The notes under the pieces are model-generated. The model saw only the letters and a list, made by a program, of their open reading frames with translations, had not been told where the DNA came from and searched no databases. From IMG/VR virus record IMGVR_UViG_3300002092_001784, positions 1-64,000 of that record: a DNA stretch of 64,000 nucleotides; one strand, 5' to 3'. The translations under genes and the position numbers were made by a program. Below, piece after piece: positions 18,537 to 62,558 of this stretch. The stretch comes from a virus. Taxonomy: Duplodnaviria > Caudoviricetes. The number at the start of each line of letters is the position of its first letter. Position 1 is the first letter of the stretch.

Positions 18537-18764
18537 ATGCGTATTAAACGAAGTAAATTAAGGGAAGCTGGGAAACTCAATGAAGGACTTTTTGCAAAAT
18601 TTATTGATAATCTTGTCGATGCATATAAAAGAGGGGTAGAAGACCAATTTATAGAAAAATCAAGAAAAGCAAACCCATATTTAGCAAAAGCATTGGATGA
18701 CACTATTGAAGACCTTGACCGTTTAGATAAAATACTAAACGATATGATGAAATCTCAAAAATAA
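18537..18764 (+). CDS. Small protein with LRE/LNE leader (putative head-packaged protein)
   Basis: MRIKRSKLREAGKLNEG; has its own ATATTTATA motif upstream. Confidence 0.55.
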   Translation: MRIKRSKLREAGKLNEGLFAKFIDNLVDAYKRGVEDQFIEKSRKANPYLAKALDDTIEDLDRLDKILNDMMKSQK

Positions 18765-18767
18765 TGA

Positions 18768-21700
18768 ATGGACAATTCTGATAAAATAAAATTTACTAAT
18801 AGTCTAGCTCAAGCCACAGAAAATCTTACAAGAAAAACGGAAGAACTTAGGGCTAAAAGGCAAGAATTGGATGATTTGGATGAGAGAATTTCAATCAACA
18901 GCTCCAATTACAGTAATGAGCAATTAGAAGCCGAAAAACAAAAAAAGAAAGCGGCAGAAGAATATATTGTCGTTACCGAACGTCAAATTAAAAAAATAGA
19001 GAGATTTATATCAGCTTCGGCTGATATTAAAAAATCAGGTAAAGAGTTCAGAGAACTTAATGCTAATATAAAAGAATCTACAAATTCTACGGATACTCTT
19101 ATTGGTAGTATATCTGCTATGGGTAAGGAAGCAATTAAAACTGCTAGAACTTCCATAAAAATAGGTCCGGATGATACTTCTATTGGATTTGCACAAAAAT
19201 TAACAGAAACCATTACGGGCATACAAAAGGCTCAGTTGGGAGTTCTTGGTGCGCAGAGTGGAACTAATGATGAGTTACAAACTGCAACAAATGTACTACA
19301 ACAGCAAATGGGTATTTATTACCAATTACTGGATAGTCAATCCGCATTTATATCAGGTAATAAAACCGTTGCAAGGGGTATTAATGAAATCACACAACAG
19401 GCAAAAGAAGCCAATACTGAATTAAGTTTAATTGGTGTAGTACCTATTCAAAATTCAATAGATGCATTTAAGCAGACAAGTACTATACTTTCCTCAAACG
19501 TATTGGCAGGAAAAGAAATGTCACAAACCATGCGTAATATTGGGTATGATATTTCTAAATTGGGTGAGATACAATCCGATGTTTTTGGTAATACTGGCAA
19601 AGAATCAAGAATAATTGATTCCATCGCAGAAGCCACCGTTGCTAGAGGACAGGCAATGGTACAATTTATGAATGCCATTGCAAGCGGAGATGTGAAGCAA
19701 CAAGAAGAATCATTAAAGGTATTAAAACAAAGAGAGGCTAACTATAATTCCATCTTAACCACATATGGTAGTGAGATACGTTCTTCTGAAATGTTATCAA
19801 AAACAGTAAATAATTTAAGTAGTGAATTTGATAATCTAAAAGGTAAGATAACGGAAGTTAGTAATACCAATCCGTTTGATAGAATGAAAGATTCAGCTAT
19901 ATCGTTGAGTAATACTATATCTGATATAAAAATGTCTCAAAGTTCGACTAAAGATATGGGTGCTGGATTATCTTCAATTTCATCTGGTTCAAAATCAATT
20001 ACAACGAATGCGAAGGCGGGAAAATATGATGACAGGCAATTGGCATTTGCAGTTAAAATACAGGATGCAGCAGAAAAATACGCTCAAGCTCAAAAGGAGA
20101 ATTTTAATTCAGCGGGTAAGACCAAAGAAGAACAAAAAGAGACTGCAGATATTCTAATTCAAGCTGAAAAAATATGGGCATCGATCATAAAAGAAATGCA
20201 AGATGGTGATGCTAAATTAAAGCAATTCGCAGGTAGTGTAAATACTATGAATACCGGTTTCAAAAATGTTTCAAAGGAAATGAGAATTGTTCATGGGTTA
20301 ACCGAAGATGAAGTTACACAATTAAAAAAATTAACATCGGCCGCAGACGAGTTTGGTATAAAAATGAAAGCAATAGGTTCGACAATTAGCCTTATACGGA
20401 AAAGACCATTGGTTTTGCTTGGTTTGGGAATTATGGCGGCGGGTAAGGCTATGAGTTATCTTACCGATACCGTCAAACAGATGGGTGGTTATATTGAAGG
20501 TACTACACTAGCTACTGCAGGATTGAGTGTTTTTTTCAAAGATGCGGTCGGACAGGCAATATCACTTTCCGACCAATTTGGTGGCATTCGAAACGTATCA
20601 AATGCCACACAGTTAAATGCCAATTTATTAGCTTCTAATCTAAACCTATCCAGTGATGAAACCGCTAAATTGATTGGTGGATTTGCCCGATTAAGTGATG
20701 GTACAGCAGAAAGTGCTGAAAACTTAATGGCCGGAAGTGCAGAATTGGCAAAAGTGAATGGGTTAATACCTTCTGTTGTTATGAAGGATTTGGCAGGAAG
20801 TACTGAGCAATTTGCAATGTGGGGTGGTAAAGGTGGTGAAAATGTATTAAAAGCAGCAGTTGCCGCCGGTAAATTGGGTATTAACATGCAGAAGGTGAGC
20901 CAAGCAACTGACAAACTTCTTGATTTTGATAGTTCAATGTCAGATGAGTTAGAAGCTCAATCTATGTTAGGTAGAAATATAAATTTATCACGTGCACGTT
21001 CATTGGCATATGAGGGTAAGCGTGGCGAAGCACTTAAAGAAGAAATTACACAATTAGGTGGTATTGATCAGTGGAATAAAGCAGATTACTATGGTAAGCA
21101 AGAAATTCTTAAAATAACAGGCTTAACCGCAGAAGATTATCAGAAAGCGGCTTCAAACTTGAGTTTAATAAATGATAAGGGTGAGGTAATGGTTGAACAT
21201 GCCGAAGCCTCAAATAAGCAATTCAGTCAGGCAGACGAATTACTGAAAAATATGGCACTCAATGCCGGACCTAAAGCAGTAGAAGCTGCTGGTGGATTTA
21301 TGACATTATTAGGTGCAGCTGGAGGTATTGGGCAGGCAATTGGTGGGGCTGGTACAATAATTGGTGGAATTGGTAAACTATTTGGAAAGGGTAAAGGTGC
21401 GGAGGGTACAACGCCAACTGAAGCATCAATTCCAACAACCACTACTACGATACCGCAAGCAACTACCAATATTGGAGAAGAAGCTAAGAATATAATGGCT
21501 GAAAATGCAGCAGAAAACTTAGCCGGTAAATCAAAAATTCCTAATGTTGGTGAGGAAGTTGGAAACGTTGGTAAAGTTGAGAAAGGAGCTGAAGCTGCTA
21601 CTTCAAGCGGTGGTATCGGTGGCGCATTGAAAAATTTAGCAAGTGGATTGGAAGCAATGGGAACTGGTAAGGTTGCTATTGGTATATTAAATCTTGGATT

Positions 21701-25768: not shown

Positions 25769-28264
25769 ATGTCAGCATTTCCAAATTTTTCAAACATATT
25801 ACCGTATGTTCAGACAACAATGAACAGTAGAAAGAACAATATGTTCATTTCTGAATTAGATTGTTGGGTACGTGTCGTATCTGCGGTTGGTAACGGTGCA
25901 GTTTTACTTTCAAATCCAAAAGCAAGTTTGTTTGGTGCTAAAGGTATATATGGTATTCGGGCCGGTGGTATGTTGGGTTATAATTGGCAAGGCGGTATAT
26001 TACAATATACAAATACTAATAATGATGACCTAGCCGGCCGTCCATTACCAGTAGTTACAAGTTTTGAAGTTGATGAAGGTACGGCTAGTACTAATTCTAT
26101 CACACGAAAGGCAAAATTTACAATAAAATGTTTTACACCTGCACAATTACATGATATTTGTGAATATTATTTAGAACCGGGGTTTTCGGTATTCCTAGAA
26201 TGGGGATGGAACACTGCGGCATCTGTGGGTTCTGTTACTAAATTAGATGTTGAAACTATTGCGGCATATCAGAATTTTGAAAAGGTTCATGATAAGAGAA
26301 AAATGAGTAATGCAGAGAGTGATGTATTTTTAGGATTTATCACGGGTGGTACTATACAATCATCAGGCACAACATGGGAAGTTAATGTAGATTGTCATGG
26401 ATTTCCTGAATTGCCCGCATATTTTATGAATGCTGATAGTCATCGGCAGTTGGATATACATGGTAATCTTGTAAAGGAAGATGGTTCTGCTAAAACTGGA
26501 ATGAGATATGAACCAAAAGATATAGATAATGCAGCGGATTTAGATGCAAAACGGTTTATGATGGCATTTAACGCATTACCATCCAATATGCAAACCTACG
26601 AAGTTTCAAGATTGTTGGGAGATGTTGATGTTGCCAATATTATGAATTTTATAAACTATGATGAATCAGTGGCAGCAGCTGCTAACGCTAAAGCACCGGG
26701 TTATATTAATGATTATGCAAACAATCAAGAAATAATAAAGAGTACACGTGGATTATCAGCAAATATTCCTTCAAAATCAAATGATGCCAACAAACCAATC
26801 GGTGATGAGAAATTTATTAGATTTGGGGCATTGGTAAAAATGATGAACGCAAAAGCAGCAAAAGGTTACGCAATTGGTAATGATCAATGTGTCTTATTTG
26901 AAATAGATACAACAACAAGTGTAATTTCTGCATTTCCTAAAATTTTTAGTACCGATAAATCAAAATTATTCATTCCAAACCCACAAACACCACATCCTAC
27001 ATTTGTAAGTGCAACTGGAACAACCGATCAGGTAAAATTTGGCGATCCAATAGATAATACGGTTAAAGGTACTAAAGCCTTTACCAATAAACTTGATAAG
27101 GTTACCTTTCCAATGAATGCACCGATTAAAGATGGCATGTGGAATGGTATTGCTTTAACATATACTGATGAATCCAAAGGAATACCGGGAATTGATAAAG
27201 AAGAAAATCAATGGGGTTTCTTAAATGATTTATATGTTAATGCTGATTTTGCGAAAGGTATACTTGATACCAAAAACTTTGTAATAAAAGATGCATTATA
27301 TCAAATCCTAAATGGGTTATCATCTGCGGCCGGTGGTATGTGGGATTTCCAAATTGAATCAGTACCGATTGCGGCTGATACTGATGTAAAATCCGCAGGT
27401 ATTGTGGTTGCTAAAATGAAAAAGGGGGATACTATATTGAAAGTAGTTGATTTGAATTTCATTCCAATACACAAAGATGATCCGATTTATACGTTTGAAT
27501 TGCAAGGTATACATTCTATTTTTATGCAAGCATCGTTTGATATGAATATTAGTGGGGCACGTATGAATCAAATTATTGCACAACGTAATAATGTTGCACA
27601 GAACTCATCAATGTCTGCTGCATCATATGGAAAATTGTTCTCTGGAAAGCAAGATATGATTTTGCAAAAAATATATGGTATGCAGGATAACGCTCAGGCT
27701 GCTGCTGGTACACCACCACCTGCTGCAAAAACCAAACCATCACCGGAGGATGAGGCAAAAAAGAAAAAAATATTTAATGATAAGTTGGCAATGTATCCGC
27801 ATGTGAAAGATGATAAAACTGCTCCTGATTTTGGTGATGACCCATTTATTAATTATTATTTGGGGGCATACTCCGATTCTAACTTTTTTGAATCGTTTAA
27901 GCTTGAAAACCAAGGAGATCAAAAGGCGCAGAAATTGGTTACACCACCTATGGGGATAAAATTTAATTTTACAATACATGGGGTTTCTGGACTTAACAGA
28001 GGTGATAAATTCAAAGTACATGGTATACCTAAAGATTATTATGATAGTGGATTTTTTCAAATACGAGGAATAAAACATACATTGGAAGGTATGTTATGGA
28101 AAACGGAAGTAACTGGAGAATATAGACGTATATATGATTCAATAAGTACGTTTGACGCAACTGAAGTTCACGTTCCGGATTCAATTTCTGCATCAACCAA
28201 ACCATCACAAACATTCAATGCGGAGGCGGTTGTTAATAATACGTTTAACGTTAAATCTGAATAA
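25769..28264 (+). CDS. Baseplate hub protein (gp27/gpD-like)
   Basis: Follows the LysM-like gene; PG.SVFLEWGW and C-terminal GI..GD.F...GIP...F.I..I.H..W.TEV.G motifs. Confidence 0.65.
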   Translation: MSAFPNFSNILPYVQTTMNSRKNNMFISELDCWVRVVSAVGNGAVLLSNPKASLFGAKGIYGIRAGGMLGYNWQGGILQYTNTNNDDLAGRPLPVVTSFEVDEGTASTNSITRKAKFTIKCFTPAQLHDICEYYLEPGFSVFLEWGWNTAASVGSVTKLDVETIAAYQNFEKVHDKRKMSNAESDVFLGFITGGTIQSSGTTWEVNVDCHGFPELPAYFMNADSHRQLDIHGNLVKEDGSAKTGMRYEPKDIDNAADLDAKRFMMAFNALPSNMQTYEVSRLLGDVDVANIMNFINYDESVAAAANAKAPGYINDYANNQEIIKSTRGLSANIPSKSNDANKPIGDEKFIRFGALVKMMNAKAAKGYAIGNDQCVLFEIDTTTSVISAFPKIFSTDKSKLFIPNPQTPHPTFVSATGTTDQVKFGDPIDNTVKGTKAFTNKLDKVTFPMNAPIKDGMWNGIALTYTDESKGIPGIDKEENQWGFLNDLYVNADFAKGILDTKNFVIKDALYQILNGLSSAAGGMWDFQIESVPIAADTDVKSAGIVVAKMKKGDTILKVVDLNFIPIHKDDPIYTFELQGIHSIFMQASFDMNISGARMNQIIAQRNNVAQNSSMSAASYGKLFSGKQDMILQKIYGMQDNAQAAAGTPPPAAKTKPSPEDEAKKKKIFNDKLAMYPHVKDDKTAPDFGDDPFINYYLGAYSDSNFFESFKLENQGDQKAQKLVTPPMGIKFNFTIHGVSGLNRGDKFKVHGIPKDYYDSGFFQIRGIKHTLEGMLWKTEVTGEYRRIYDSISTFDATEVHVPDSISASTKPSQTFNAEAVVNNTFNVKSE

Positions 28265-28272
28265 TAACTATT

Positions 28273-28750: not shown

Positions 28751-29248
28751 ATGAAACAATTTATTTTGAAAGATTCACCGTTTAGAGTAGGTAGCCTGGT
28801 TAATGAGGCAACAGAGACTAAAGACCCTATGGATATTTACAAAGCCAGTAGGGATATTTTGAAACAAAAAAAAGAGTTAGAATCCAAATTAGATTCAATG
28901 CAAACGGAATACGAATCTTTAATTAAAAATCAATTCAATGATAAATTGGACGAATTGGTAGTTACTCTTAAAAAAGTTTATCCTAAAGCAAAGAGTATAA
29001 AACGAGTAGATAAACAATCAGCATATGATGGTGATGTTTTAGTACTGTTTTCAACTGGGAATGAGGTAACCGATCAGGTTTCCGAGAAAAAGAAAATAGA
29101 AGATGCGTTTGGAGAAAAAACTTCGATTGTTGCCAATGGCATCTATGTTAAACCCGATCCTAAATCATCTAAGTATCTATATGGGGGATTAGCCTTACGG
29201 TTTACAAAAGCATATCAAAATAAAATAAGAAATTTCCCAGAATTTTAA
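28751..29248 (+). CDS. Hypothetical protein with LVNE-type leader
   Basis: 165-aa ORF flanked by a promoter and a terminator. Confidence 0.6.
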   Translation: MKQFILKDSPFRVGSLVNEATETKDPMDIYKASRDILKQKKELESKLDSMQTEYESLIKNQFNDKLDELVVTLKKVYPKAKSIKRVDKQSAYDGDVLVLFSTGNEVTDQVSEKKKIEDAFGEKTSIVANGIYVKPDPKSSKYLYGGLALRFTKAYQNKIRNFPEF

Positions 29249-29303: not shown

Positions 29304-29304
29304 A

Positions 29305-30755: not shown

Positions 30756-31235
30756 ATGAAACTACACGAATTTAAGAAGATACTTCGAGAAGAAGTTCGC
30801 AATGTATTGAGAGAAGATACTCAATTATTTAATGATCCAGATCAACTTCAAATGTCATCTGCCGCAACTGAAGCGTTTAATACTATTGATAAAGTTGTAA
30901 ATGTAGTTATGAAAAAATCTCTTACACTCAATAATGATGATTCGGAAGTAAACCGTTATTGGACATTTGATTTGAAATTATCTGGTAATGCACATATTTC
31001 TATGTGGGTAACCATATTTAATGACGGTCGAATTAAATTTCCAATATTAAGATTTACAGAGTTTTCAAACCGCAAATCTGATAAAAAAATTACCAAAAAT
31101 GATATAAAATGGTTGGTGAATTTATTGGAGATTGATAATGATAAATATAATGGACCTTATGGTAAAAAATTATCATCATTCAAAAATCAAACAGATGCCA
31201 TTGAATGGCTTAAAACCGTAGATTTAATAAAATGA
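30756..31235 (+). CDS. Putative internal head protein (LREE/LRED leader)
   Basis: MKLHEFKKILREEVRNVLRED. Confidence 0.6.
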   Translation: MKLHEFKKILREEVRNVLREDTQLFNDPDQLQMSSAATEAFNTIDKVVNVVMKKSLTLNNDDSEVNRYWTFDLKLSGNAHISMWVTIFNDGRIKFPILRFTEFSNRKSDKKITKNDIKWLVNLLEIDNDKYNGPYGKKLSSFKNQTDAIEWLKTVDLIK

Positions 31236-31615
31236 AACTGAAAGAGATTAAACAGATAATTCGAGAAGAATTGAGAGCCGTATTAAGAGAAGATGCGGAT
31301 GAATACATTGGCCATACGAAGATTAAAGATGGTATATTATATGTAGATTCAAATCTGGTCAATAAAACCAATACTCTTAATTTGGGATTGGATCATTTGG
31401 GTATGGGTGATTTTGGGACAAAGAAACCATTGGAACTGCCGGGGTTTGGTGGAGTAACATTACAGTTTTTGCGTAAATCTGAAACGATACCGGGTTTTGT
31501 AGGTAGGGCTCATAAAGTGATTATTGAAAACGAAGATGGCGAACGTATCAATACTGATATGAAAGCCGTAGCCCAGTTGGTTAAAATATTCAAACAAAAA
31601 GGATTAGTAAAATAA
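31232..31615 (+). CDS. Putative internal head protein (IREE/LRED leader)
   Basis: MKLKEIKQIIREELRAVLRED. Confidence 0.6.
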   Translation: MKLKEIKQIIREELRAVLREDADEYIGHTKIKDGILYVDSNLVNKTNTLNLGLDHLGMGDFGTKKPLELPGFGGVTLQFLRKSETIPGFVGRAHKVIIENEDGERINTDMKAVAQLVKIFKQKGLVK

Positions 31616-31635: not shown

Positions 31636-32370
31636 ATGAAGAAAATCAGTCTAAAAGAACTTATTCGTGAAGAATATAGGAAAGTCATAAAAGAGAATGC
31701 TCTTTTGACCGAAATGGATTTTGCAACGCAAAAATCATTTGATGCTTATAATAAAGCACATAAACTTCGTCCATCAACGAAAGTAACCATTGCAGGTAAA
31801 CCAACAACTGCAGGTCAAGCAGCAGGTAAATCAGCACCTACGAATGCACCGATTAAAGGGGCAGATATGTTTAAGCAGGATACTCCGACTAAATCTTCGG
31901 GTGCGTTAACTTCTAAACAATTGCGTAACAAATATACTGATGCGGATTGGGATGCGGCAAAGAAAAATGCAAAATACGGTGGTACTAACTGGGATACATC
32001 TGAAATAGATAAAATTGATACTAGCTCATGGAATATTGAAGATGGTGTCACATATGATCAGTCTGATGAAATCCAATCAATACTTAATAAAGCCATTGGA
32101 AATGATAATGGGTTTGCACAAGTAAATGATGAGGGGGCAGTCGAATATATGGTTGGTAATGGTAGTGATGGTGATCCAGAATACACTTTATATATGGGAC
32201 CTGACGATAACGGTAAAGGTTGGACTGTAAGTATGGGTGCTAATGGAGATGACCCATCTGAACTTGATGGTAAATATTGGAAAACATTTAGAAATCCAAA
32301 AGATGGTATAAAATATATGGCTACGATAGCTAAAAAGCATAAGAAAGATTTGGAATTGGATAATGCTTAA
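31636..32370 (+). CDS. Putative internal head protein (leader + HKL.P.TKVT module + acidic domain)
   Basis: MKKISLKELIREEYRKVIKENALLTE. Confidence 0.6.
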   Translation: MKKISLKELIREEYRKVIKENALLTEMDFATQKSFDAYNKAHKLRPSTKVTIAGKPTTAGQAAGKSAPTNAPIKGADMFKQDTPTKSSGALTSKQLRNKYTDADWDAAKKNAKYGGTNWDTSEIDKIDTSSWNIEDGVTYDQSDEIQSILNKAIGNDNGFAQVNDEGAVEYMVGNGSDGDPEYTLYMGPDDNGKGWTVSMGANGDDPSELDGKYWKTFRNPKDGIKYMATIAKKHKKDLELDNA

Positions 32371-32393: not shown

Positions 32394-34160
32394 ATGTTTC
32401 CAAACTTTGAAGAAATACTAACAGAATTAAGTTATAGAATACCGGAAGGTGTGGTTGATTTAAGAAATCCATCACATATTACCGAACTTGCGAATATATT
32501 GCGTGAGTTCGGTATTTCTGATGCTTACGAACTTGCTGAATCGGCCGGTTTGGTTTTTGAGCAGTTGGTCGAAGATGTGATGGTGCAGAACAAAAACTCA
32601 GGCAAAGTATATAGTGTTAAAAATTTTAACCCAGATAATCACGTTAAGGTAGATACAAATACTGCACACACATCTGATAAATCTAAAACTCCGGCAGCAA
32701 ACCCGCCTAAAGGAGATGCCAATGTAGATTCTACCCATAACTCAGGTGATACCATAATTAATGGGAAAGACAAGAGTTTGGAATCTAAAGACCCATTAAG
32801 TACATCGGTATATACTTCCGAGTTATCACCAGATGATACTGATTTTGATGCAAAAAATAAAAAGTTTGCAAATCCGATACCACCACCACCATTTAAGTTT
32901 CCCAAATCTATTAGTAGTAATCCAAAATATCCAAAAAAATATATAAAACTTTTGGAAAGAATGATGAACACACAACAGATTGGAGATGCTAAAAAAATAT
33001 CGCATTATTGCGATATGAAGGCAGGGCAGGGGGCTATATCGGCTCAGGCCGGTGAGTTAATGACTATGATGGCAGTAACGATGGATGATAAAGAATTTGC
33101 AGAATTTAAAAAATCAATTTCAACACACATAGACTCGTTAACAAAACCAAAAAGAGTAGTAAGTGATACATCTCGAATTATTACTAAAAAATGGTTAACT
33201 GCCGCAGAAGGTAATCGAAAGGGTATATTGAAACGGATAGCTAAGCAATATCCGGGGTATCATATCGTTGCATCGGCTTGGGATACTAAATCTGATGTTG
33301 AGGCTTTGGGTATGAAAGATTATTCGAATAAAGGGGGTACTACCGATGTATATTTGAGATTGGAAAACGATAAAGGTGAAGCAAAATTAGATGAATTATC
33401 ACTGAAGCAAAGTTTGATCGCAAATTTACTTAATTCAGGAGTAGGAAAATTTGATGAATGGATGGGTAAAAACGGAGTTCCAGACAGTATCAATCAGCAT
33501 GTATATGCCCAGAACCAAAGAAGTGTTTTATCAAAATTCTGTAAAGATAATATAGAAAATATTAAAAAATTGGTAAATTCTGATGATGAATTACGGAGAG
33601 TAATGGAGGCGAAGCATCTTGATTTTGAAACGGCGTTGAATGATACCTTAAACGGTAAAGGAAATAGACATAAGTCTAAAGTACTTATTGAAGCAGTAGC
33701 TGCATTACAACGAAATGGTGATAAATCGGCTACTAAGTTAATATCCGATATGGATGCTGCTCATTCCAAATTCGTTTCAAATTGTATTACTGCCATCACC
33801 ACCGATGAGAAGTTAAAGGAGGGTATGCTGAATGAAATAAAATCAGAATTTCCATTAAAATCGGTGGCAGATAGTGAAGAAAGTGTTGTGTTTGGTGAAT
33901 ATGTTCTTGATAAGAGTACTATGAAACAAATATTTGGAACAAGTGATTTTAACCAATTTAAGCAAGGGTTGGTATCCGAACCGGGACCACCACCGTATAT
34001 TGCATACAAAGTTAAGACTGGTGGCAGAATTATACCTATTGCAAACATAGCAGTTAGAGAGGATGGTCGAAATTATGGGGGGATTTTCAAATTTGAAATG
34101 ACACTTAATAAAGAATTGGCTAATGAGATTATAAAAGCAAACAAAGAAGTTTACGGATAA
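32394..34160 (+). CDS. Large hypothetical protein; shared N-terminal module plus possible PD-(D/E)xK nuclease fold
   Basis: N-terminal NPSHITELANILREFG; internal AGELM...TDVYL...ELSLK. Confidence 0.5.
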   Translation: MFPNFEEILTELSYRIPEGVVDLRNPSHITELANILREFGISDAYELAESAGLVFEQLVEDVMVQNKNSGKVYSVKNFNPDNHVKVDTNTAHTSDKSKTPAANPPKGDANVDSTHNSGDTIINGKDKSLESKDPLSTSVYTSELSPDDTDFDAKNKKFANPIPPPPFKFPKSISSNPKYPKKYIKLLERMMNTQQIGDAKKISHYCDMKAGQGAISAQAGELMTMMAVTMDDKEFAEFKKSISTHIDSLTKPKRVVSDTSRIITKKWLTAAEGNRKGILKRIAKQYPGYHIVASAWDTKSDVEALGMKDYSNKGGTTDVYLRLENDKGEAKLDELSLKQSLIANLLNSGVGKFDEWMGKNGVPDSINQHVYAQNQRSVLSKFCKDNIENIKKLVNSDDELRRVMEAKHLDFETALNDTLNGKGNRHKSKVLIEAVAALQRNGDKSATKLISDMDAAHSKFVSNCITAITTDEKLKEGMLNEIKSEFPLKSVADSEESVVFGEYVLDKSTMKQIFGTSDFNQFKQGLVSEPGPPPYIAYKVKTGGRIIPIANIAVREDGRNYGGIFKFEMTLNKELANEIIKANKEVYG

Positions 34161-34252: not shown

Positions 34253-36211
34253 ATGAAAGTATCTAAACTGATAAATGATATTGTTGCAGAATGGGCATAC
34301 CGAGTACACGATGGTAAGCCAAATCCAAAGAATAAATCACATATTACCGAGTTATCCGCAATCCTGTCCGAAATGGGGTTGAGTGGTATCAAACACGAAT
34401 TAATCCAAAATCTTACAGAAGCGGATGAAAAGCAATTTTCAAATCCGGTTCTTAATAAAAAAATACGGTATAAAAACGAAAAAGGTGAAGACCGTGTTGG
34501 TATTGTTGGAAATCTATTAAGACTACCAAAAACTGCAAAGGGAAGAATTGCCGCAGAAAAGGTAATTCCTAAAGATGATACACCGGAACGTAGGGCAATT
34601 AATAAGGATTTAGGTAAAGAGAAAAAAGGTAGAAACCAATCCATAACAGTACCAAAGAAAGGTGAAGACCAAGAATCACCGGAAGGTGGTCAGCAACCAC
34701 AACAACCATCACCATCCGTAATGTATACAGCAGACCCTGCAATGCAAGCTAGGATGGATACCGAAAAGAAAACATTAGCAAAGATTACCGCCAAAAAGAA
34801 AGAAGCAGAAAAGGCAGCAACTGAAAAGCCGGAAAAGGAAGATATGGATTTCAATCCGATAAACCCGCAGGATATTCACAAGGAAATGCCACATGCTGAT
34901 CCTGATACATTTAGTGGAGATTCTGATATTCCGGAACGAGTTCCACAAGATGAAGCAAGAAAAATCTCAATGAGAATTGATGATTTGGCAAAAGCAACTG
35001 CCGATGCTAAAGCAAAAGGAGAGAAAGCACCGAACTTCAATTTATGTAAGATTACCGTTCCCGGTACTAACTTATATTGTGATGGGAATTTGGGTATACC
35101 AAGAGAAGATATGCCACAATTCAAAGGTAAACCACAACCGGGTTCACCTGCATCAAAAATGCCAACCGATGAAAACGGTGAAGTAGATACTGAAGGGTTA
35201 TTCAAAAAAATGTTGAAAGATAAAGGAATTAAAGTACTTGATACTGAAATCCCATCCGATCAACTAAAAGCAACTCAATCAGAGTTAGTAGGTTCTAAAG
35301 TAGCTGGTATGGCTAAGGCATTGGATAAAGACCCAAACAATCCGGGTATTACAGCACCTATTTATGTAAGTAGAGATGGATATGTTGTAGATGGTCATCA
35401 CAGATGGGCAGCAGTAACATCAAACGCAATTACTCAAGGAAAACCGGCAATAATGAAGGTTCATGTTATTGATGCCGATGCTAAAGATATTATACCGATG
35501 GCAAACAAATTTGCCGAAAACATAGGTGTTGCCGCTAAAAAGGCAGATGCAAACCAAGAAGGACCAAAAGGTGAAGAAGAAACCAACCATGTGAAACGCG
35601 TACATAAAAAAATTGTAAAAGGTATAGAACATTTTTCAAATGAAAACAAAGAATGGTTCTTAAAAAAACAATATGCTCAAAAATCCAAAGAAAGAAGAAC
35701 AATGTCCGAAGCAGTAATGCATAAGGTTAGAGGTTCTTGGGATTCGATTAAACACCACCTAAAAGAAGAAGGTGAAGTATTTAAGCACGCAAGTGTAGGT
35801 GCAGCTAAATTCTTCAGTGGTAAAAAATTGGAAAACCACGAAAAGAAAGCATTAAAATCCGTTGCTGTTAAGGTTGTTATGGGTGCGGCAACTGCGGCAC
35901 TTACTGGTGGGATAGGACACGGTATATCTGCATTTGCACACCATGTTGTTATAAATATGATACCAGATACGATACAGGAATCAATCGCAAAAGGAATTGG
36001 TAAAGCAGCCCTATTTGCTGGAGAAGAAGATGAATCAAAATATATGTTGAAGTTCATAGAAATGATAATAGAAAAATTAAGTACTATGAAAATCACACCG
36101 GATATGATGCTAAAGTATGTAGATTCATTCAATGAAAAGCAAGGAATAAAGGAAGCAAAAGAAATACAGTTAACATCTATGTTAGCTAAGTCATCATTAA
36201 AATACAGATAA
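34253..36211 (+). CDS. Protein with ParB/Srx-like domain and shared N-terminal module
   Basis: LKATQSEL...PIYVSRDGYVVDGHHRWAA. Confidence 0.7.
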   Translation: MKVSKLINDIVAEWAYRVHDGKPNPKNKSHITELSAILSEMGLSGIKHELIQNLTEADEKQFSNPVLNKKIRYKNEKGEDRVGIVGNLLRLPKTAKGRIAAEKVIPKDDTPERRAINKDLGKEKKGRNQSITVPKKGEDQESPEGGQQPQQPSPSVMYTADPAMQARMDTEKKTLAKITAKKKEAEKAATEKPEKEDMDFNPINPQDIHKEMPHADPDTFSGDSDIPERVPQDEARKISMRIDDLAKATADAKAKGEKAPNFNLCKITVPGTNLYCDGNLGIPREDMPQFKGKPQPGSPASKMPTDENGEVDTEGLFKKMLKDKGIKVLDTEIPSDQLKATQSELVGSKVAGMAKALDKDPNNPGITAPIYVSRDGYVVDGHHRWAAVTSNAITQGKPAIMKVHVIDADAKDIIPMANKFAENIGVAAKKADANQEGPKGEEETNHVKRVHKKIVKGIEHFSNENKEWFLKKQYAQKSKERRTMSEAVMHKVRGSWDSIKHHLKEEGEVFKHASVGAAKFFSGKKLENHEKKALKSVAVKVVMGAATAALTGGIGHGISAFAHHVVINMIPDTIQESIAKGIGKAALFAGEEDESKYMLKFIEMIIEKLSTMKITPDMMLKYVDSFNEKQGIKEAKEIQLTSMLAKSSLKYR

Positions 36212-37288: not shown

Positions 37289-37486
37289 ATGATAAAACTA
37301 AAATCACTTCTCATAAAGGAAGACCTAATATTCAAAAATAAGGATGAGTTTGACGAATATAATAAAATTCATAAATTACCACCAAATACCAAAGTAACGG
37401 TGTGTGGTAAGAATATGACAGCAGTGGAAGCAGAAACAACACCATTGCCATGTAGTTACATAATACCGCATTGGCAAAATTATTGA
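37289..37486 (+). CDS. Small protein: leader + stand-alone HKL.P.TKVT module
   Basis: MIKLKSLLIKE; shares a module with 31636..32370. Confidence 0.6.
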   Translation: MIKLKSLLIKEDLIFKNKDEFDEYNKIHKLPPNTKVTVCGKNMTAVEAETTPLPCSYIIPHWQNY

Positions 37487-37516: not shown

Positions 37517-37831
37517 ATGATAAAATTAAAACGACTACTTAAAGAAGCAAAGAAGCCGGAAATGGATACTTATTTTGATTCATTCACTTCAGCCGCACAA
37601 GCCGCAAGAAATATGGCAGAAAAGAAAGGATATGAAATCGATGAAGAAAGCTGGCAAGATGAAGTGGCAATGGGTGGTAAGAATTTACGTTCAAGACCAA
37701 GTGTTGGAAAATATACCAAATTCAGTGTTAGTTTAATTAAAAATGGAAAACCACAAAAGAACAGAGCATTGTTCTTTACAGTGTATGGTATGCCAAGTGG
37801 TAAGTATGAATTAACCGCATATATATCTTAA
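37517..37831 (+). CDS. Small protein with LKE leader
   Basis: MIKLKRLLKEA; late motif at 37493. Confidence 0.65.
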   Translation: MIKLKRLLKEAKKPEMDTYFDSFTSAAQAARNMAEKKGYEIDEESWQDEVAMGGKNLRSRPSVGKYTKFSVSLIKNGKPQKNRALFFTVYGMPSGKYELTAYIS

Positions 37832-50884: not shown

Positions 50885-53406
50885 TGGCATATCAAAACAT
50901 TTATTTTCAGAGAAATCAAAATCTAATGCACATTTGGGATGATCATCGGGGATATAGGACATTTCCGTATTCTCGTTATGCATATCAAAAAGACCCAAAT
51001 GGACAATTTACGTCTTTATATGGCGATAAACTTACTAAAATTTTCAAATTTTCAAAGGATGATCCAAATTTATTCGAATCCGATGTCCCAGAAACTACAC
51101 GGGTTTTGGTAGATACATATACGGATAGTGATTTACCATCGGAAGGACATATCATTTTAACATATGATATTGAGGTTGAAATGGATTCCGGTCTTCCTGA
51201 TGTTCAGAAGGCTGAAAATGAAATAACTGCTATTGGTTTGCATGATTCTGCTACAAACCATTATTGGGTATTGATTATGGATAAAGCCGGTAAGATGGAT
51301 GGTGTTGAAACTGGAAACCGAACCGTTATACCGTTTAGATACGAAGATGATTTATTATTAAAATACATTGATTTGTATGAGGAAATAAATCCAACAATCG
51401 TTACTGGATGGAATATTGATAATTTTGATACTCCGTTTTTATACAATAGAATAAAAAGATTATTGGGTGAGAAGCAAGCCAATCGTTTATCGCCGATTGG
51501 TGAGGTGTTCTGGTCACCATATCGTAAACGATATTTTATTGCCGGTGTATCTTATTTGGATTACATTGAATTGTATAAGAACTTTACATATTCGGAGTTA
51601 GCAAATTACCGCTTGGACAGTATTGCTAATATCGAATTGGGTAGAGGAAAACTTGAGTATACTGGAAATTTGGATAACCTGTTTAAGACAGACCCTAATA
51701 AGTTTATAGAATACAACATTACTGACGTTGAGTTGGTGGTTAGTATGGATGCTAAATTACAATTCATTGATTTGTGTAGAGGTATATGCCATGCAGGCCA
51801 CGTTCCGTATGAAGATTTTGTATATTCATCGAAATACCTTGAAGGCGCTATTCTTTGTTATTTGAAACGAAGGGGTATTGTTGCTCCTAACAAACCTGCG
51901 GATAGGCAGGAAAGGATGCAGGCTCTTAAAGATAATGAGCAAGAAAAGTTCATTGGTGCATATGTGAAGGCACCGATAGTTGGTAAGTATGAATGGGTGT
52001 ATGACTTAGACTTAACATCGCTATATCCATCTATCATTATGGGTGTAAATATATCACCGGAAACCAAAGTTGCTAAGATTTCGAATTGGGACTCTTCAAA
52101 GTATATGAAGGGCGAGATTGATACATTTAATATTGATGGACAATCCATTACCAACGATAACCTTAAACTGATGTTGCAAGAGGAAAAATATACTATTTCA
52201 TCAAACGGTGTATTATATCGGACAGATAAAGTAGGTTGTATACCTGATATTTTGGATTTATGGTTCAATCAGCGTGTTGAATTTCGTAAGTTAGAAAAGA
52301 AATACGGTGAAGAAGGTGATAAGGTACAACATGCATTTTATAAAAGGAGACAGCATGTTCAGAAGATTTTGCTTAATTCACTTTATGGTGTATTAGGTTT
52401 GCCAGCGTTTCGTTTCTACGATGTTGATAATGCAGAAGCAGTTACAACTTCTGGGCAGATGGTTATTAAATCAACTGCGGATATGGCTAACATCAAATAT
52501 AACAAAGAATTGGGAACGGGTGATGCAGATTATAATATTTACATCGATACGGATTCCATTTTCTTTAGTGCAGTGCCGATTTTGGATTTCCGATATGCGG
52601 ATTGGAGAAGTGGTACTCAAGAAGATATAGCAAAATTGGTTGATACTGTTGCAGGTGAAACGCAAGATTATCTGAATAATTTTTATAACATTTTAGCGGA
52701 GAGGGTATTTAATATTCCAAAAGGTAAACATCGTTTTCAGATTAAGAAAGAGTTTGTATCCAGAAGTGCAATTTGGTTAGCTAAGAAACGATATGCTATG
52801 GCAATTGTAGCTGAAAATGGATTACCAATAAATAGGTTGGATGTAAAGGGATTAGACGTTGTACGTTCATCATATCCTGCACAGTTCCGTAAATTTATGA
52901 GTGAGGTATTGATTGATATTCTGAATGGTAAAACAGAAAATGAGTTGAGTGATAAGATATATTACTTTAAGTTGGACCTTAGAAATATGGATGCCGTTTC
53001 AATAGCTAAAAATTCGGCAGTAAAAGAATTATCGAAGTATATTCCGAAAGGAAAGCAAACGGCAATGTTTCGATTTAATTCCGGTACTCCTGCGCATGTG
53101 AAGGCGGCAATTGCATTTAATCAATTAATTAAACATTTTAATTGTCCTACAAGTATTGAACCAATGCGTGATGGTGATAAGATAAAATGGATGTATCTGA
53201 AACAAAATCCGTATGGGTTGGATGCCGTTGGGTTTAAGGGATACGAAGACCCGACAGAAATAATTGAGTTCATAAAAACATATGCTGATTATGATGAAGT
53301 ATTTGAACGTGAACTTCTAGGTAAGTTGGAAGATTTCTATACCGCATTGAAGTGGGGTTCGCCGTTAGGTAGCACGAAAGTCTCAGAACAATTTTTTCAA
53401 TTTTAA
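50884..53406 (+). CDS. Family B DNA polymerase (gp43-like)
   Basis: Exonuclease YDIEV/GWN...FD; DLTSLYPS, KILLNSLYG, YIDTDS motifs. Confidence 0.95.
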   Translation: MAYQNIYFQRNQNLMHIWDDHRGYRTFPYSRYAYQKDPNGQFTSLYGDKLTKIFKFSKDDPNLFESDVPETTRVLVDTYTDSDLPSEGHIILTYDIEVEMDSGLPDVQKAENEITAIGLHDSATNHYWVLIMDKAGKMDGVETGNRTVIPFRYEDDLLLKYIDLYEEINPTIVTGWNIDNFDTPFLYNRIKRLLGEKQANRLSPIGEVFWSPYRKRYFIAGVSYLDYIELYKNFTYSELANYRLDSIANIELGRGKLEYTGNLDNLFKTDPNKFIEYNITDVELVVSMDAKLQFIDLCRGICHAGHVPYEDFVYSSKYLEGAILCYLKRRGIVAPNKPADRQERMQALKDNEQEKFIGAYVKAPIVGKYEWVYDLDLTSLYPSIIMGVNISPETKVAKISNWDSSKYMKGEIDTFNIDGQSITNDNLKLMLQEEKYTISSNGVLYRTDKVGCIPDILDLWFNQRVEFRKLEKKYGEEGDKVQHAFYKRRQHVQKILLNSLYGVLGLPAFRFYDVDNAEAVTTSGQMVIKSTADMANIKYNKELGTGDADYNIYIDTDSIFFSAVPILDFRYADWRSGTQEDIAKLVDTVAGETQDYLNNFYNILAERVFNIPKGKHRFQIKKEFVSRSAIWLAKKRYAMAIVAENGLPINRLDVKGLDVVRSSYPAQFRKFMSEVLIDILNGKTENELSDKIYYFKLDLRNMDAVSIAKNSAVKELSKYIPKGKQTAMFRFNSGTPAHVKAAIAFNQLIKHFNCPTSIEPMRDGDKIKWMYLKQNPYGLDAVGFKGYEDPTEIIEFIKTYADYDEVFERELLGKLEDFYTALKWGSPLGSTKVSEQFFQF

Positions 53407-55150: not shown

Positions 55151-56365
55151 ATGAATTTTTGGGATACTGAACCACAAACACCTGTTTTTGATTTTGATAT
55201 TGAAAAACAGAAATTGATTGAAAATATGGATTATCTGTTTGCAATGTCCGTTCAAGAACAGACACTTTATAAAAAATGGGTGGAGCTCCAAGAACCTACC
55301 ATGCAGAAAGATAAATCCCAAATATCCACATATTATGATATGCAATGGAAACCAACCGATATCAATAATAAGGAACTAACGATTGCCGAAATTCAATCGT
55401 TAGAACCTTATGTTGAGATTGTGGATGATAATGCTGCCGAATCTACCAAATGGGCTCAAATCCGTAGAATGATTCATACAATGGATTTTACGGCAAACCC
55501 CGGTAGAAATGTGAAAATCAATGTAAAGGATAGAAAGACGGGTAAGTTATTGGGTCAAATTTCTCTTGCATCGGATGTTACATCATTGGGGGTGCGTGAT
55601 GAATATATTGGGTGGACTAAGGATGACAAATTCAAAAAAGGTAAACTGAATCACACTACCATTGCATCTACTATTGTATGTACACAGCCATTGGGATATA
55701 ACTTTTTGGGTGGTAAACTGATAGCTATGATGTGTACTGTACCTGAAGTTAGAGAACATTGGAAGAAAAAATACGATAATACTTTAATCGCAGTTGGAAC
55801 AACTTCGTTATATGGTATCAATTCTCAGTACACAGGCCTTCCACTTTTCAAAACTTTGGGTGAAAGTAAAGGTAAGATCAGTATAAAACCTGATGATAAA
55901 TTTTATGATCCATGGCACCAATGGTTAAAAGAAAATCGTACAGAGTGGTATAAGAAAAACATAACAGAAGAGCGTGAACGAAATGGCGCTAATATGGGTT
56001 ATGAACGAAATGGACCTGTTAGTGGCATCAAACAAAAGATTCTTACACAAATTTTCAAAGAGTGTGGTATTAAAGCAAATGAATATCATCACGGATTTAA
56101 GCGTGGAATTTATTTGGCTATGATGTACGAAAATGGTAATGATTTTCTTTGTGATAAAATTGGTGAAGACCAACTAAAACTTAGAGATAAGTTTGTGAAG
56201 GGAACAGATTATATTATGGAGTGGTGGAAACGACACGCTATTAGTAGATATACCAAGCTACATACAGAGGGACGTTTGAAACCGGATCATCTTTTTTACA
56301 TCAATGGTATAGGACAAGATTGGGATAGCTTTAAGGCCGAATACTTAGGAGAAGTTGGACGTTAA
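55151..56365 (+). CDS. DUF4338/DruA-like protein
   Basis: PGRN...V.D..TGK.LG.I.L.SD...L..RD.YIGW, P.GYNFLGGKL.A and TTSLYG..SQY motifs; starts MNFW. Confidence 0.7.
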   Translation: MNFWDTEPQTPVFDFDIEKQKLIENMDYLFAMSVQEQTLYKKWVELQEPTMQKDKSQISTYYDMQWKPTDINNKELTIAEIQSLEPYVEIVDDNAAESTKWAQIRRMIHTMDFTANPGRNVKINVKDRKTGKLLGQISLASDVTSLGVRDEYIGWTKDDKFKKGKLNHTTIASTIVCTQPLGYNFLGGKLIAMMCTVPEVREHWKKKYDNTLIAVGTTSLYGINSQYTGLPLFKTLGESKGKISIKPDDKFYDPWHQWLKENRTEWYKKNITEERERNGANMGYERNGPVSGIKQKILTQIFKECGIKANEYHHGFKRGIYLAMMYENGNDFLCDKIGEDQLKLRDKFVKGTDYIMEWWKRHAISRYTKLHTEGRLKPDHLFYINGIGQDWDSFKAEYLGEVGR

Positions 56366-57324: not shown

Positions 57325-57858
57325 ATGAGTCAAACAATTAAATTATTAAAAGAAGCATTAAAAGATATAGCCGGAGATACTACCGGCTATAAAATTTACT
57401 GTGATATGGATGGTGTTCTTACGGATTTTGATAAACAATTCAAAGATATAACAGGTATACCTGCTAATGAATTTGAAAAAACACATTCTCAAACTGAATT
57501 TTGGGGAGAAGTTGAAAAGGGCGGATTGGAATATTGGACAAAAATGGAATGGATGCCGGGTGGAAAGCAGTTATGGAATTTTATTAAGAACTATGATGTT
57601 GAAATTCTATCAGCTCCATCAAAATCTAAACTTTCAATTATTGGTAAAAAGCAATGGGTATCTGAAAACCTATCACCTAAACCTAAATTGAATTTGGTTA
57701 GAGCCAAAGAAAAACAGAAGTTTGCAAATTCACACGCAATACTAATCGATGATAGACCACAAAATTTAGAACAATGGAAAGCAGCCGGTGGTATTGCAAT
57801 AAAATGTGTGAATGGTGAGGTTAGTTCAGTAATAGATAAATTAAAAAAATATGTTTGA
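57325..57858 (+). CDS. HAD 5'(3')-deoxyribonucleotidase-like protein
   Basis: CDMDGVLTDF, ILSAP and LIDDR..N motifs. Confidence 0.85.
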   Translation: MSQTIKLLKEALKDIAGDTTGYKIYCDMDGVLTDFDKQFKDITGIPANEFEKTHSQTEFWGEVEKGGLEYWTKMEWMPGGKQLWNFIKNYDVEILSAPSKSKLSIIGKKQWVSENLSPKPKLNLVRAKEKQKFANSHAILIDDRPQNLEQWKAAGGIAIKCVNGEVSSVIDKLKKYV

Positions 57859-61777: not shown

Positions 61778-61978
61778 ATGACTCAAGACAACACAAAATT
61801 AACAACTGTAAAGATACTTAAAGATGTTTATTCCGGCTTCAAACGTGTATCGTTTGATTCCGATGTGACTTTACAAAAATTAGTAAATAGAACCGTTGAA
61901 CGATATGTAACGGATGATATGTTTCGTAAGGAAATGAATGAATATTTGAAATTACAAATTAGCGGTTCTCAATTTTAA
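61778..61978 (+). CDS. Small ribbon-helix-helix-like DNA-binding protein
   Basis: A beta strand (TTVKI) followed by two helices (TLQKLVNRTVERY). Confidence 0.55.
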   Translation: MTQDNTKLTTVKILKDVYSGFKRVSFDSDVTLQKLVNRTVERYVTDDMFRKEMNEYLKLQISGSQF

Positions 61979-61982
61979 TGTT

Positions 61983-62558
61983 ATGAAATTAAAGAAGTTA
62001 TTACCCAAAGACATGTTAGTGGAAAGTAGTGGAGTGCATAATTATGGTTGTGCTATGATGTATTTTGATTTTCCTGCATTGTTTAAGTTGCAAGATGCTA
62101 TAAATCCAAAACACATCTACGAAGACCCAAACGATACGAGTTATGGGTTGGAAGATGAACCACATATTACATTATTATATGGGTTGCATGATGGAGTAAC
62201 TGTTGATGATGTATCTCATATTGTACAGAAGTTTGTATTTACTGAATGTGTTTTATACAATCCATCATTATTTCAGAATGAAAACTATGATGTATTAAAA
62301 TTTGATGTGAGGTATCCAACTAAAGGCGGGGCATTTTTACATAAATGTAATAGGCAATTATGTGAATTACCAAATACAAATTCGTATCCCGATTACCATC
62401 CGCATATGACAATTGCTTATTTGAAACCGGGTATGGGACAACAATATTCAGACCATTTTAATAAAATCGAACCAAACGGATATACATTAGTTCCATCACA
62501 TGTAGTTTACTCCGAACCAAATGGAGAAAAGACAGTAATTAAAATCAGAACAAATTAA
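61983..62558 (+). CDS. 2H phosphoesterase (T4 57B/Acb1-like candidate) with leader
   Basis: Two HxT motifs: EPHITLLYG and YHPHMTIAY. Confidence 0.8.
   Translation: MKLKKLLPKDMLVESSGVHNYGCAMMYFDFPALFKLQDAINPKHIYEDPNDTSYGLEDEPHITLLYGLHDGVTVDDVSHIVQKFVFTECVLYNPSLFQNENYDVLKFDVRYPTKGGAFLHKCNRQLCELPNTNSYPDYHPHMTIAYLKPGMGQQYSDHFNKIEPNGYTLVPSHVVYSEPNGEKTVIKIRTN

Follow-up and report, generated by a model that had tools for sequence, protein, structure and literature searches.

Exchangeable N-terminal leaders ending in hydrophobic-x-Glu on unrelated proteins of a distant T4 relative: candidate capsid-targeting tags

Tagged genes of the window and their genome

The window, the whole stretch of DNA that was analysed, covers the initial 64 kb of a phage genome of 266 kb that belongs to the T4 superfamily. 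The phage is a distant relative of T4, and its host probably belongs to the Flavobacteria (Bacteroidota). Several proteins of the window begin with a short leader of one of two classes. Class A leaders have the form M-I-K-L-K-x-L-L-x-E and 10 residues (range 9-11); class B leaders have the form MKxxxLKxIIREE..VLRE, about 20 residues (range 19-26) and two or three sites. Both classes terminate in hydrophobic-x-Glu, the T4 gp21 cleavage motif, with the L/I of the leader end occasionally V, M or F. Genes are named here by their first coordinate, and an arrow marks the junction after Glu.

18537..18764, + strand: 75-aa protein beginning MRIKRSKLRE↓A; N-terminus confirmed, leader PSSM p=0.017, ambiguous
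28751..29248, + strand: 165-aa basic protein, 19-residue leader ending ..GSLVNE↓A, supported by homologue junctions
30756..31235, + strand: 159-aa protein, class B leader MKLHEFKKILREEVRNVLRE↓D with two sites, ILRE and VLRE↓D
31232..31615, + strand: 127-aa protein, class B leader MKLKEIKQIIREELRAVLRE↓D with sites IIRE and VLRE↓D
31636..32370, + strand: 244-aa protein, 26-residue class B leader MKKISLKELIREE..ALLTE↓M with three sites, the last LLTE↓M; PSSM p<2e-4
32394..34160, + strand: 588-aa protein beginning MFPNFEEILTE↓LSYR, which fits the T4 spacing rule
34253..36211, + strand: 652-aa protein beginning MKVSKLINDIVAE↓WAYR; phrog_2859, weak ParB-like central domain
37289..37486, + strand: 65-aa protein, class A leader MIKLKSLLIKE↓D; PSSM p<2e-4, short paralog of the mature start of 31636
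37517..37831, + strand: 104-aa basic protein, class A leader MIKLKRLLKE↓A; matched by the class A regex, PSSM p<2e-4
57325..57858, + strand: NT5C-type 5'(3')-deoxyribonucleotidase, leader MSQTIKLLKE↓A, then a linker and the DMDG core
61983..62558, + strand: 2H phosphoesterase, 14-residue leader MKLKKLLPKDMLVE↓S, two H-x-T motifs

Within the window the cargo includes two enzymes, the 5'-nucleotidase and the 2H phosphoesterase, as well as a pair of large paralogs carrying a ParB-like domain and several small proteins without a recognised fold. An earlier sequence-only reading of this DNA cited nine of these N-termini, all of which were found in place on the + strand; 32394 and 34253 were absent from its list. 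Comparative evidence upholds a shared leader for eight of the nine and leaves 18537 ambiguous. The downstream parts, described in that reading as unrelated, are unrelated by all-against-all BLASTP (E<0.01, with the leader and 15 further residues trimmed off first) except for 31636 and 37289, the sole linked pair among the nine. Outside the window, two head-module proteins match each other in the same comparison. PHROGs and Pfam give no family for most of the cargo, including 30756 and 31232, and beyond its leader 31232 is linked by BLASTP to none of its neighbours. PADLOC run on eight cargo proteins gave no match, nor did GenBank phages searched with window positions 28000-40000 (megablast) or with 37517 (tblastn).

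The gene 18537 is flanked by a baseplate-hub-like gene and the tape-measure gene, and this position inside the tail module counts against its product being head cargo. The one ortholog that was found (L132) begins MKLKENKAVLSE↓G, with a Glu that aligns with a second site of the window protein, KLNE↓G; a search of IMG/VR found no relatives. 18537, one of the nine, may not belong to the leader set.

In the 266-kb genome as a whole, about two dozen unrelated proteins bear tags. Seven tagged genes form a tandem block at 139784-143151, and some tagged proteins belong to the head module. 57325 and 61983 are located among replication genes, which counts against their being head cargo. On the coding strand the T4 late promoter TATAAATA shows no enrichment (30 versus 52). 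A strand-specific TATATTTATAT box lies upstream of 18537, 37517 and 139784. Its reading as a late promoter shared with structural genes was dropped on two grounds: it looks like the -7 box of a host-type Bacteroidota promoter, with TTTG farther upstream, and it is found in front of replication and homing-endonuclease genes as well.

The genome encodes GroES, GroEL and, at 249260-249859, a T4-type Peptidase_S77 prohead protease (PF03420, E=8.4e-28, 94 bits, above cut-off; phrog_207 head maturation protease, E=1.6e-52). The protease begins MQPKLLIE↓T (T4 gp21, MNEPQLLIE↓T), an acidic scaffold-like protein of pI 4.1 begins MASSKLLKE↓A (T4 gp22, MLKEQLIAE↓A), and the major capsid protein begins MANFDLSKLME↓G..VMLAE↓T, with its PHROG capsid match from residue 23 on. 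These site types (LLIE↓T in the protease, LLKE↓A in the scaffold-like protein, KLME↓G and MLAE↓T in the capsid protein) are kept in orthologs and parallel those of T4 gp21, gp22 and gp24. A Cys-Ntn hydrolase fold was recognised in the head-module protein 251419 (Z 15-19), whose Cys8 aligns with the first mature residue of NAAA, acid ceramidase, isopenicillin N acyltransferase, penicillin V acylase and bile salt hydrolase. Residues E7-C8 are invariant in six orthologs, the nucleophile Cys standing right after the Glu of L-x-E. Ntn hydrolases are mostly self-processing, and the E↓C junction of 251419 therefore need not be a prohead-protease cut.

Leaders as exchangeable modules

A bare (L/I/V)-x-E is too frequent to carry meaning by itself. 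A motif search over the N-termini of the genome, proposed earlier as a check, revealed enrichment: a T4-derived rule (hydrophobic residues at 4, 7 and 8 and Glu at 10, a shift of one tolerated) fitted 11 of the 367 N-termini, where 2.2 would be expected (P = 2e-5). The strict class A regex applied to all six frames gave nine matches, eight of which are real ORF starts, and hh-x-E occurs inside the first 16 residues of 35/362 proteins (9.7%) versus 4.1% of internal windows. A tenth match in the window, the flap endonuclease 40055, was rejected as chance; its ortholog in Flavobacterium phage immuto lacks the motif. With a leader PSSM trained on a cluster lying outside the window, 37517, 37289 and 31636 are individually significant and no other of the nine is. 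57325, 18537 and 30756 reach p values of about 0.02-0.05 only and depend on comparative evidence.

Such evidence is provided by homologues, across which the junction after Glu is retained even where the leader has been exchanged, extended or dropped. In five cargo families (2H, NT5C, 31636, 28751 and 34253) the leader changes and the Glu junction stays. Two homologues of 28751 have different leaders, MIRLKKILKE↓A (P0300) and MKKSQLKQIIKEELDVVINE↓A (P0301), and share E↓A ahead of the aligned mature part. Homologues of 31636 retain the mature module (I/M)DF..FDAYNK.HKLRP, although their leaders measure 9, 11, 18, 20 or 26 residues. The leader of 30756 is similar to those of 31636, the head-module protein 247926 and the orthologs of 247926. 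The junction type of 32394 is common to 34253 and to homologues in L052, L017 and L117, and in the 34253 family E↓W(A/S)YR is kept in immuto, L017, L052 and L117 despite variable leader length. The central domain of 34253 is also found behind canonical MIKLK leaders (L030, L121, L043). Homologues of 37517 with a leader occur in L025, L053, L059, L064 and L123; in multi-domain cargo (L089, L076, L114) 37517 is an internal domain with h-x-E↓A directly before it. The AF2 model of 37517 has low confidence for residues 1-17 and a fold from about residue 18, and searching the PDB for the fold of this family produced no hit at E<=0.001.

The nucleotidase recognised by the earlier reading is confirmed, as 57325 scores 35.1 bits against Pfam PF06941 (NT5C; gathering cut-off 24.8) and carries the HAD motif as YCDMDGVLT at residues 25-33. 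An extension of 8-35 residues precedes 108 of 114 NT5C homologues, with h-x-E in 105 of these, and the canonical MIKLK leader heads NT5C in L083, L103 and L107. A syntenic subgroup with 66-69% identity is leaderless, indicating that packaging of NT5C would be optional at most.

The identification of 61983 as a 2H phosphoesterase also stands. Its HIT and HMT motifs are invariant in 47 homologues, the domain has about 170 residues, and the score against Pfam 2_5_RNA_ligase2 (25.9 bits) falls slightly short of the cut-off of 27. P0004-P0009 back the start at M1; M11 is called in one source. A pre-domain peptide is present in 118/118 homologues, with hh-x-E in 105/118 versus 2.4% of internal windows, and the junction Glu is at least 90% conserved in the family. 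In other lineages some homologues begin with MKHIKLFEEFLNE, a leader closer to T4 MKTYQEFIAE. The only isolates with the 2H enzyme are the Maribacter phages Molly and Colly, both without the leader. 61983 resembles T4 Acb1 (7T26) in its pair of H-x-T motifs and in a size typical of small phage 2H phosphoesterases, and Acb1 is its best Pfam neighbour after 2_5_RNA_ligase2. Membership of 61983 in Acb1 is not established, since the scores are sub-threshold: 21.7 bits against PF23474 (cut-off 27) and, for the family profile against the PDB, E=0.11 for 7T26 as the best match and E=0.25 for 9Q2G. T4 Acb1 is not known to be packaged or to carry a capsid-targeting sequence (CTS).

Class A leaders open at least 125 complete ORFs in at least 120 IMG/VR loci, with very diverse cargo, and 134 of the 140 listed IMG/VR matches to the class A DNA pattern stand at the start of an ORF of 40 aa or more. 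Among the matches listed, tagged proteins include an ADP-ribosyltransferase (ART-PolyVal), lysozyme and P-loop kinases. At least 88 unrelated cargo families share the leader, and conservation stops abruptly after position 10. Each leader codon position varies synonymously, conservation ends past Glu10, and the mean column identity after the tag is 7% in 60 tagged IMG/VR proteins. Leader-bearers of the 266-kb genome are basic (median pI 9.1 versus 5.8 for the genome, Fisher P=1.3e-5), and the tagged IMG/VR proteins among the matches listed have a pI of 9.2 versus 6.9. At the level of sequence, these comparisons demonstrate tags that are modular, under protein-level selection and terminated by a conserved junction.

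Head-module homologues were detected in 51 of 120 listed loci of about 9 kb each, a raw count without a matched background control. S77 is encoded in 18 of 32 tagged records, most of them 12-77% complete fragments, also without a matched background control. Complete tagged records encode S77 in three of four cases; a search for S77 in a complete tagged record of 207 kb was negative, which counts against the packaging reading.

Capsid targeting and its alternatives

The CTS of T4 internal proteins is reportedly the subject of work by Mullaney and Black in 1996. The CTS on IPII/IPIII (MKTYQEFIAE), IPI and Alt is removed by gp21 (PMC9026906, PMC3012670), which cleaves after L/I-X-E, the propeptides having 10-19 residues (PMC9026906). 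The T4 precedent invoked by the sequence-only reading, removal by gp21 after (I/L)-x-E, matches this source. The first 10 residues of IPIII are enough for targeting, with positions 4 and 7 serving targeting and positions 8 and 10 processing (PMC9026906). MKTYQEFIAE was checked in the T4 record, and class A has the same spacing (hydrophobic 4, 7 and 8, Glu 10). Among 115 leaders gathered through cargo homology, which were chosen without the leader pattern but with Glu10 fixed by selection, Leu occupies position 4 in 77 and position 7 in 76, and position 8 is L/I in 109.

It seems likely, with a probability of roughly 0.7, that the leaders are T4-type capsid-targeting propeptides that load cargo into the head. 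The short amphipathic leader would carry its protein into the scaffolding core during prohead core assembly, by means of the hydrophobic residues at 4, 7 and 8, the flanking lysines and Glu at about 10; class B would be a multi-site version of about 20 residues. Peptidase_S77 would then cut after the Glu of hydrophobic-x-Glu, releasing the mature protein within the head, and the mature cargo would probably exit together with the DNA at infection. We infer targeting, cleavage and ejection by analogy with T4, and a role of the cargo as effectors for injection would likewise be an extrapolation from T4. The modular capsid-targeting label proposed earlier is consistent with the S77 protease, the sites of the head proteins, the T4 spacing, the swapping of leaders and the linkage to head genes, all of which agree. 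Capsid targeting is supported in that every test made on sequences came out as it predicts. A predicted complex of the protease with residues 1-45 of 37517 scored 0.00, with a partner pLDDT <50, a result that speaks for binding no more than against it.

Alternatively, the leaders may be propeptides that a protease removes and that have no address function, serving to keep enzymes inactive or to mark a single cut, with nothing injected. The cutter would be the prohead protease or a host Glu-specific protease, and head entry, if any, would depend on other features. The heptapeptide of the Ntn hydrolase must go to expose Cys8, an activation logic for which targeting is not required, and internal h-x-E↓A between domains points to cutting rather than sorting. 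However, the prohead protease is thought to work inside the prohead, so its substrates must be there, and the basic charge of the cargo agrees with internal proteins associated with DNA. A bare L-x-E cut does not call for the conserved positions 4 and 7, and in T4 the same 10 residues serve both roles (PMC9026906). Propeptides without an address are improbable.

More improbable still is an amphipathic helix used in some other process, such as membrane association, recognition by GroEL/GroES, an N-terminal stability signal or the action of another modifying enzyme. The peptide is short and basic-hydrophobic, a brief helix is predicted with low confidence, GroES/GroEL are encoded and several tagged genes are distant from head genes, all in keeping with such a helix. 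Yet it is the Glu and the junction that are invariant and not the amphipathicity, the capsid protein, scaffold-like protein and protease have the same ending, and the linkage is to S77 and head genes. The absence of a hydrophobic stretch after the leader indicates that it is not a signal peptide, and a non-systematic look revealed no other co-occurring enzyme.

It is highly implausible that the tag is a by-product of tandem duplication with divergence, of a DNA-level recombination site for cassette exchange or of a preference for A+T-rich codons at gene starts in a genome that lacks Shine-Dalgarno sites: the G+C content of about 35%, the frequent MK../MIK.. starts, the often tandem tagged genes and the shuffling of T-even internal-protein loci would suit it, but residues are retained although all leader codons vary synonymously, A+T does not explain Glu10, conservation ends abruptly after position 10 over the at least 88 cargo families, the same cargo is headed by leaders of different class, and chance accounts for about two matches expected and about two observed (40055 plus one or two).

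Relation to known systems and possible use

The idea of a capsid-targeting tag is that of T4; the lineage, the consensus and the much larger enzyme cargo are new here. As in T4, a short N-terminal peptide ending in L/I-x-Glu, with positions 4/7/8/10 in common, heads unrelated and basic proteins, the S77 protease is homologous, and the scaffold, vertex/capsid protein and protease begin with the same kind of site. An ADP-ribosyltransferase is tagged in related contigs, as Alt is in T4. Unlike in T4, the consensus is MIKLKxLLxE, sharing the pattern alone and no residue identity, and an additional longer class has two or three sites. T4 tags a handful of proteins, whereas about two dozen are tagged in this genome, and the cargo includes NT5C, a 2H phosphoesterase, P-loop kinases, a Cys-Ntn hydrolase and multi-domain proteins with internal junctions. 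The host, too, differs, being probably a member of the Bacteroidota, and the system is known here from sequence alone.

In phiKZ, 201phi2-1 and SPN3US, head and ejection propeptides are processed by diverged gp21 homologues (PMC5694885 and PMC7411985, as summarised in PMC9026906). These phages resemble the present one in their large genomes, many head-internal proteins, short motif followed by Glu and gp21-related protease. They differ in S/A/G-x-E-type motifs, long multi-site propeptides and very diverged proteases, and they are not known to have a short shared N-terminal decapeptide, in contrast to the clear S77 member and fixed decapeptide found here.

If the tags act as in T4, they would be a sequence-readable label for proteins that travel inside the capsid. 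The proteins delivered with DNA by uncultured phages would then become a list checkable by mass spectrometry, and a packaging tag would be available for protein delivery by phages beyond the enterobacterial T4 system. With its length and its many enzymes (nucleotidase, 2H phosphoesterase, kinases, ADP-ribosyltransferase, lysozyme, Ntn hydrolase), such a list would be a promising source of first-minute counter-defence and host take-over functions in Bacteroidota phages. A more speculative and rather doubtful extension is that the head is preloaded with an enzyme kit injected with the DNA, in which an Acb1-like 2H enzyme and the 5'-nucleotidase destroy cyclic-nucleotide immune signals or nucleotide pools before phage transcription, and the prohead protease also switches cargo on, for instance by uncovering the nucleophile of a packaged Cys-Ntn hydrolase. 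In such a case, because the tag is readable from sequence, the injected proteome of an uncultured aquatic T4-like lineage could be listed from metagenomes alone.

No tagged isolate whose virion proteome has been determined was found, a cluster look-up giving metagenomic members only, and a literature search for the string MIKLK returned unrelated papers only. Flavobacterium phage immuto is a cultured tagged relative, with MIKLIDLLTE and other leaders.

Leader peptides and the proteins that carry them

Nine N-termini in the window, each ending in a hydrophobic residue, any residue and Glu, had been proposed from sequence alone to be capsid targeting sequences (CTS) like those on T4 internal proteins, which prohead protease gp21 removes in T4. 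All nine match the text quoted for them. The cargo proteins are indeed unrelated; BLASTP without the leader and 15 further residues links only 31636 and 37289 within the window (window genes are named by their start; the nine lie on the + strand). The two enzymes had also been named correctly, 57325 encoding an NT5C nucleotidase and 61983 a 2H phosphoesterase in which the two H-x-T motifs are present.

The leaders are of three forms. Class A is the decapeptide M-I-K-L-K-x-L-L-x-E, present on 37289 and 37517, with looser forms on 57325 and 61983. Class B is longer, at about 20 residues, contains two or three hydrophobic-x-Glu sites and is found on 30756, 31232 and 31636, as a variant on 28751, and on the head-module proteins 247083 and 247926 (genome coordinates). 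The third form, on the large paralogs 32394 and 34253, ends at a conserved Glu-Trp or Glu-Leu junction. Class A also opens a tandem block outside the window:

Genome 139784-143151 (genome piece L002, 785-4152): seven small genes with no relatedness beyond the leader

The sixth gene of this block (142509) is concealed within an over-extended ORF starting at 142428. Just upstream, at genome 136444-139386, is a tandem array of approximately nine paralogs, each 78-88 residues long and beginning MT.EQR(K/R)..L..FL. Including head proteins, roughly 25 genes bear a leader, a larger membership than first listed.

A bare (L/I/V)-x-E is too common to count as evidence, but the fuller patterns are not. 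The strict class-A expression has nine matches in six frames of the whole genome, eight of which are real gene starts. In the motif search over genome N-termini suggested by the sequence-only reading, a spacing rule derived from T4 (hydrophobic at 4, 7 and 8, Glu at 10) fits 11 of 367 against 2.2 expected (P = 2e-5). Approximately two matches are expected by chance. The flap endonuclease 40055 was rejected as a leader-bearer; it is a chance match because its ortholog in Flavobacterium phage vB_FspM_immuto lacks the motif. Gene 18537 is flanked by a baseplate-hub gene and the tape measure, and the one ortholog found for it has a related yet different start. It may simply encode a tail protein.

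Tagged proteins are basic: their median pI is 9.1, that of the genome 5.8, and a pI of at least 8 is reached by 17 of 22 tagged proteins as opposed to 94 of 316 (P = 1.3e-5). The tagged set in IMG/VR is likewise basic. T4 IPI* has basic faces (PMC3012670).

Leader exchange on constant cargo

The leader is modular: one cargo is found behind different leaders with the junction unchanged. The best 120 of 662 homologues of the 2H phosphoesterase were examined. Within these, a pre-domain peptide is present in all 118 with a recognisable core, and 105 of the 118 peptides contain hh-x-E, versus 2.4% of internal windows. The leader Glu, mostly at residues 9-11, is at least 90% conserved in the same set, and leader sequences vary from MIKLKDLITE to MKHIKLFEEFLNE. 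In one public gene call for 61983 (window 61983-62558), P0003 of 181 aa, the start is set at Met11 and the leader is thereby lost from view; close homologues place the conserved start at Met1.

Other families behave similarly. Leaders of 9 to 26 residues precede one mature module in the 31636 family, and in homologues of 28751 the leader is of class A or class B and the E/A junction that follows is constant (the slash marks the predicted cut after Glu). Leaders of phage immuto, which is cultured on Flavobacterium sp. LMO8, include MIKLIDLLTE, MKLDLLKKLIKE and others, and its NT5C has ..LLLE/E. Most NT5C homologues have a leader. In a leaderless syntenic subgroup (66-69% identity), the protein opens directly with the catalytic core and the reading frame is closed by a stop just before it; on the contig with leaderless NT5C, the 2H gene retains MIKLKELIKE. 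In Maribacter phage Molly the S77 match is only marginal, and the 2H enzyme is without such a leader. When the 37517 domain is internal in longer tagged proteins, h-x-E/A again precedes it:

L089, 9822-11030 (related contig): multi-domain tagged protein, hydrophobic-x-Glu/Ala before a 37517-type domain
L076, 9140-9757 (related contig): the same arrangement
L114, 7224-7775 (related contig): the same arrangement

The pattern looks as if these were small polyproteins that would be cut into pieces.

Searched with a degenerate DNA version of the class-A decapeptide, IMG/VR yields at least 120 loci. Among the matches listed, 134 of 140 begin an ORF encoding 40 residues or more that has a stop codon a short distance (a few codons) before it. 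Synonymous variation is seen at each codon of the leader, and conservation ends abruptly after Glu10. Of 125 complete tagged ORFs among these matches, 88 encode proteins of 100 residues or longer that are dissimilar to one another. S77 is encoded by 18 of 32 searchable records of at least 40 kb and by three of four complete tagged records, as raw fractions among the matches listed, most records being 12-77% complete. Head-gene homologues of this phage occur in 51 of 120 loci (mean 9 kb) and the prohead protease itself in 30 of 120, again as raw fractions among the matches listed.

The head module and comparison with T4

The virus record is 266,153 bp, of which the window is the first quarter, with G+C of approximately 35% and nearly all genes on the + strand. 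Its major capsid protein shares 50-54% identity with those of phage immuto, a 484-kb uncultured phage and Microcystis phage Mel-JY01, and 40% with that of Rhodothermus phage RM378; thousands of T4-like phages are more distant relatives. Terminase, portal, core proteins, protease, scaffold-like protein and capsid protein form the head module, which includes:

Genome 249260-249859: T4-type prohead protease (Peptidase_S77)
Genome 251419-252246 (genome piece L003, 10420-11247): protein with a Cys-Ntn hydrolase fold (Z 15-19)

T4 gp21 cleaves after L/I-X-E, and T4 internal-protein propeptides are 10-19 residues long (PMC9026906). In IPIII, residues 1-10 are enough for packaging; positions 4 and 7 are important for targeting, and 8 and 10 for processing (PMC9026906). 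Class-A leaders likewise have Leu at 4, 7 and 8 and Glu at 10, as do leaders gathered by cargo homology, independently of the leader pattern. MKTYQEFIAE is present twice in the T4 record, which also holds gp24 MAKINELLRE/S. The protease starts MQPKLLIE/T in this phage and MNEPQLLIE/T in T4 gp21, and an acidic scaffold-like protein starts MASSKLLKE/A, compared with MLKEQLIAE/A in T4 gp22. The capsid protein starts MANFDLSKLME/G..VMLAE/T, and its PHROG capsid match begins at residue 23. The CTS was already suggested as a general protein-loading route for T4-like phages (PMC9026906; PMC3012670), and the underlying principle is that of T4. The novelty lies in the consensus, a second leader class, cargo that is numerous and enzymatic, junctions inside proteins and the host group; no mention of the leader was found in the literature searched.

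The 251419 protein matches no Pfam or PHROG family. Its fold matches are NAAA, acid ceramidase, penicillin V acylase and bile salt hydrolase, and Cys8 aligns with mature residue 1 of these enzymes and of isopenicillin N acyltransferase. This nucleophile directly follows Glu7 of a prohead-protease-type site, and six orthologs keep the Glu7-Cys8 pair without exception, behind L-x-E. For activity, the N-terminal peptide must be removed exactly at the predicted site, which may occur by self-processing.

Upstream boxes and other genes

A promoter-like box, TATATTTATAT, is biased in strand, its 11-mer having 25 copies on the + strand versus two on the - strand:

Window 4265, 6532, 14296, 17468, 18501, 30635, 37492, 38014, 58813 and 61743, with approximately 25 further genome sites: TATATTTATAT box

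It lies 6-30 bases before start codons, often with TTTG about 20 bases upstream, and precedes three tagged genes and also replication genes. The box resembles a host-type Bacteroidota sigma-A -33/-7 promoter and is consistent with a Bacteroidota host. As it is also present before replication genes, it is uninformative on late expression. The T4 late box is not enriched in this genome.

GroES and GroEL homologues are encoded at genome 87654-89578, as they are in phage immuto. Two large proteins (window 199-2799 and 4304-6430) open with long Gly/Ser/Thr-rich collagen-like repeats (GSSGTSG..) and are probably fibre or decoration proteins. A syntenic relative (L130, 1249-4874) has a NUMOD3 homing-endonuclease gene interrupting the gene for its family-B DNA polymerase; the polymerase gene of the window (50884-53406) is unsplit. 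Adjoining the polymerase is a 404-aa protein (window 55151-56365) whose syntenic ortholog has Pfam DruA, a family that takes its name from a defence protein of Druantia.
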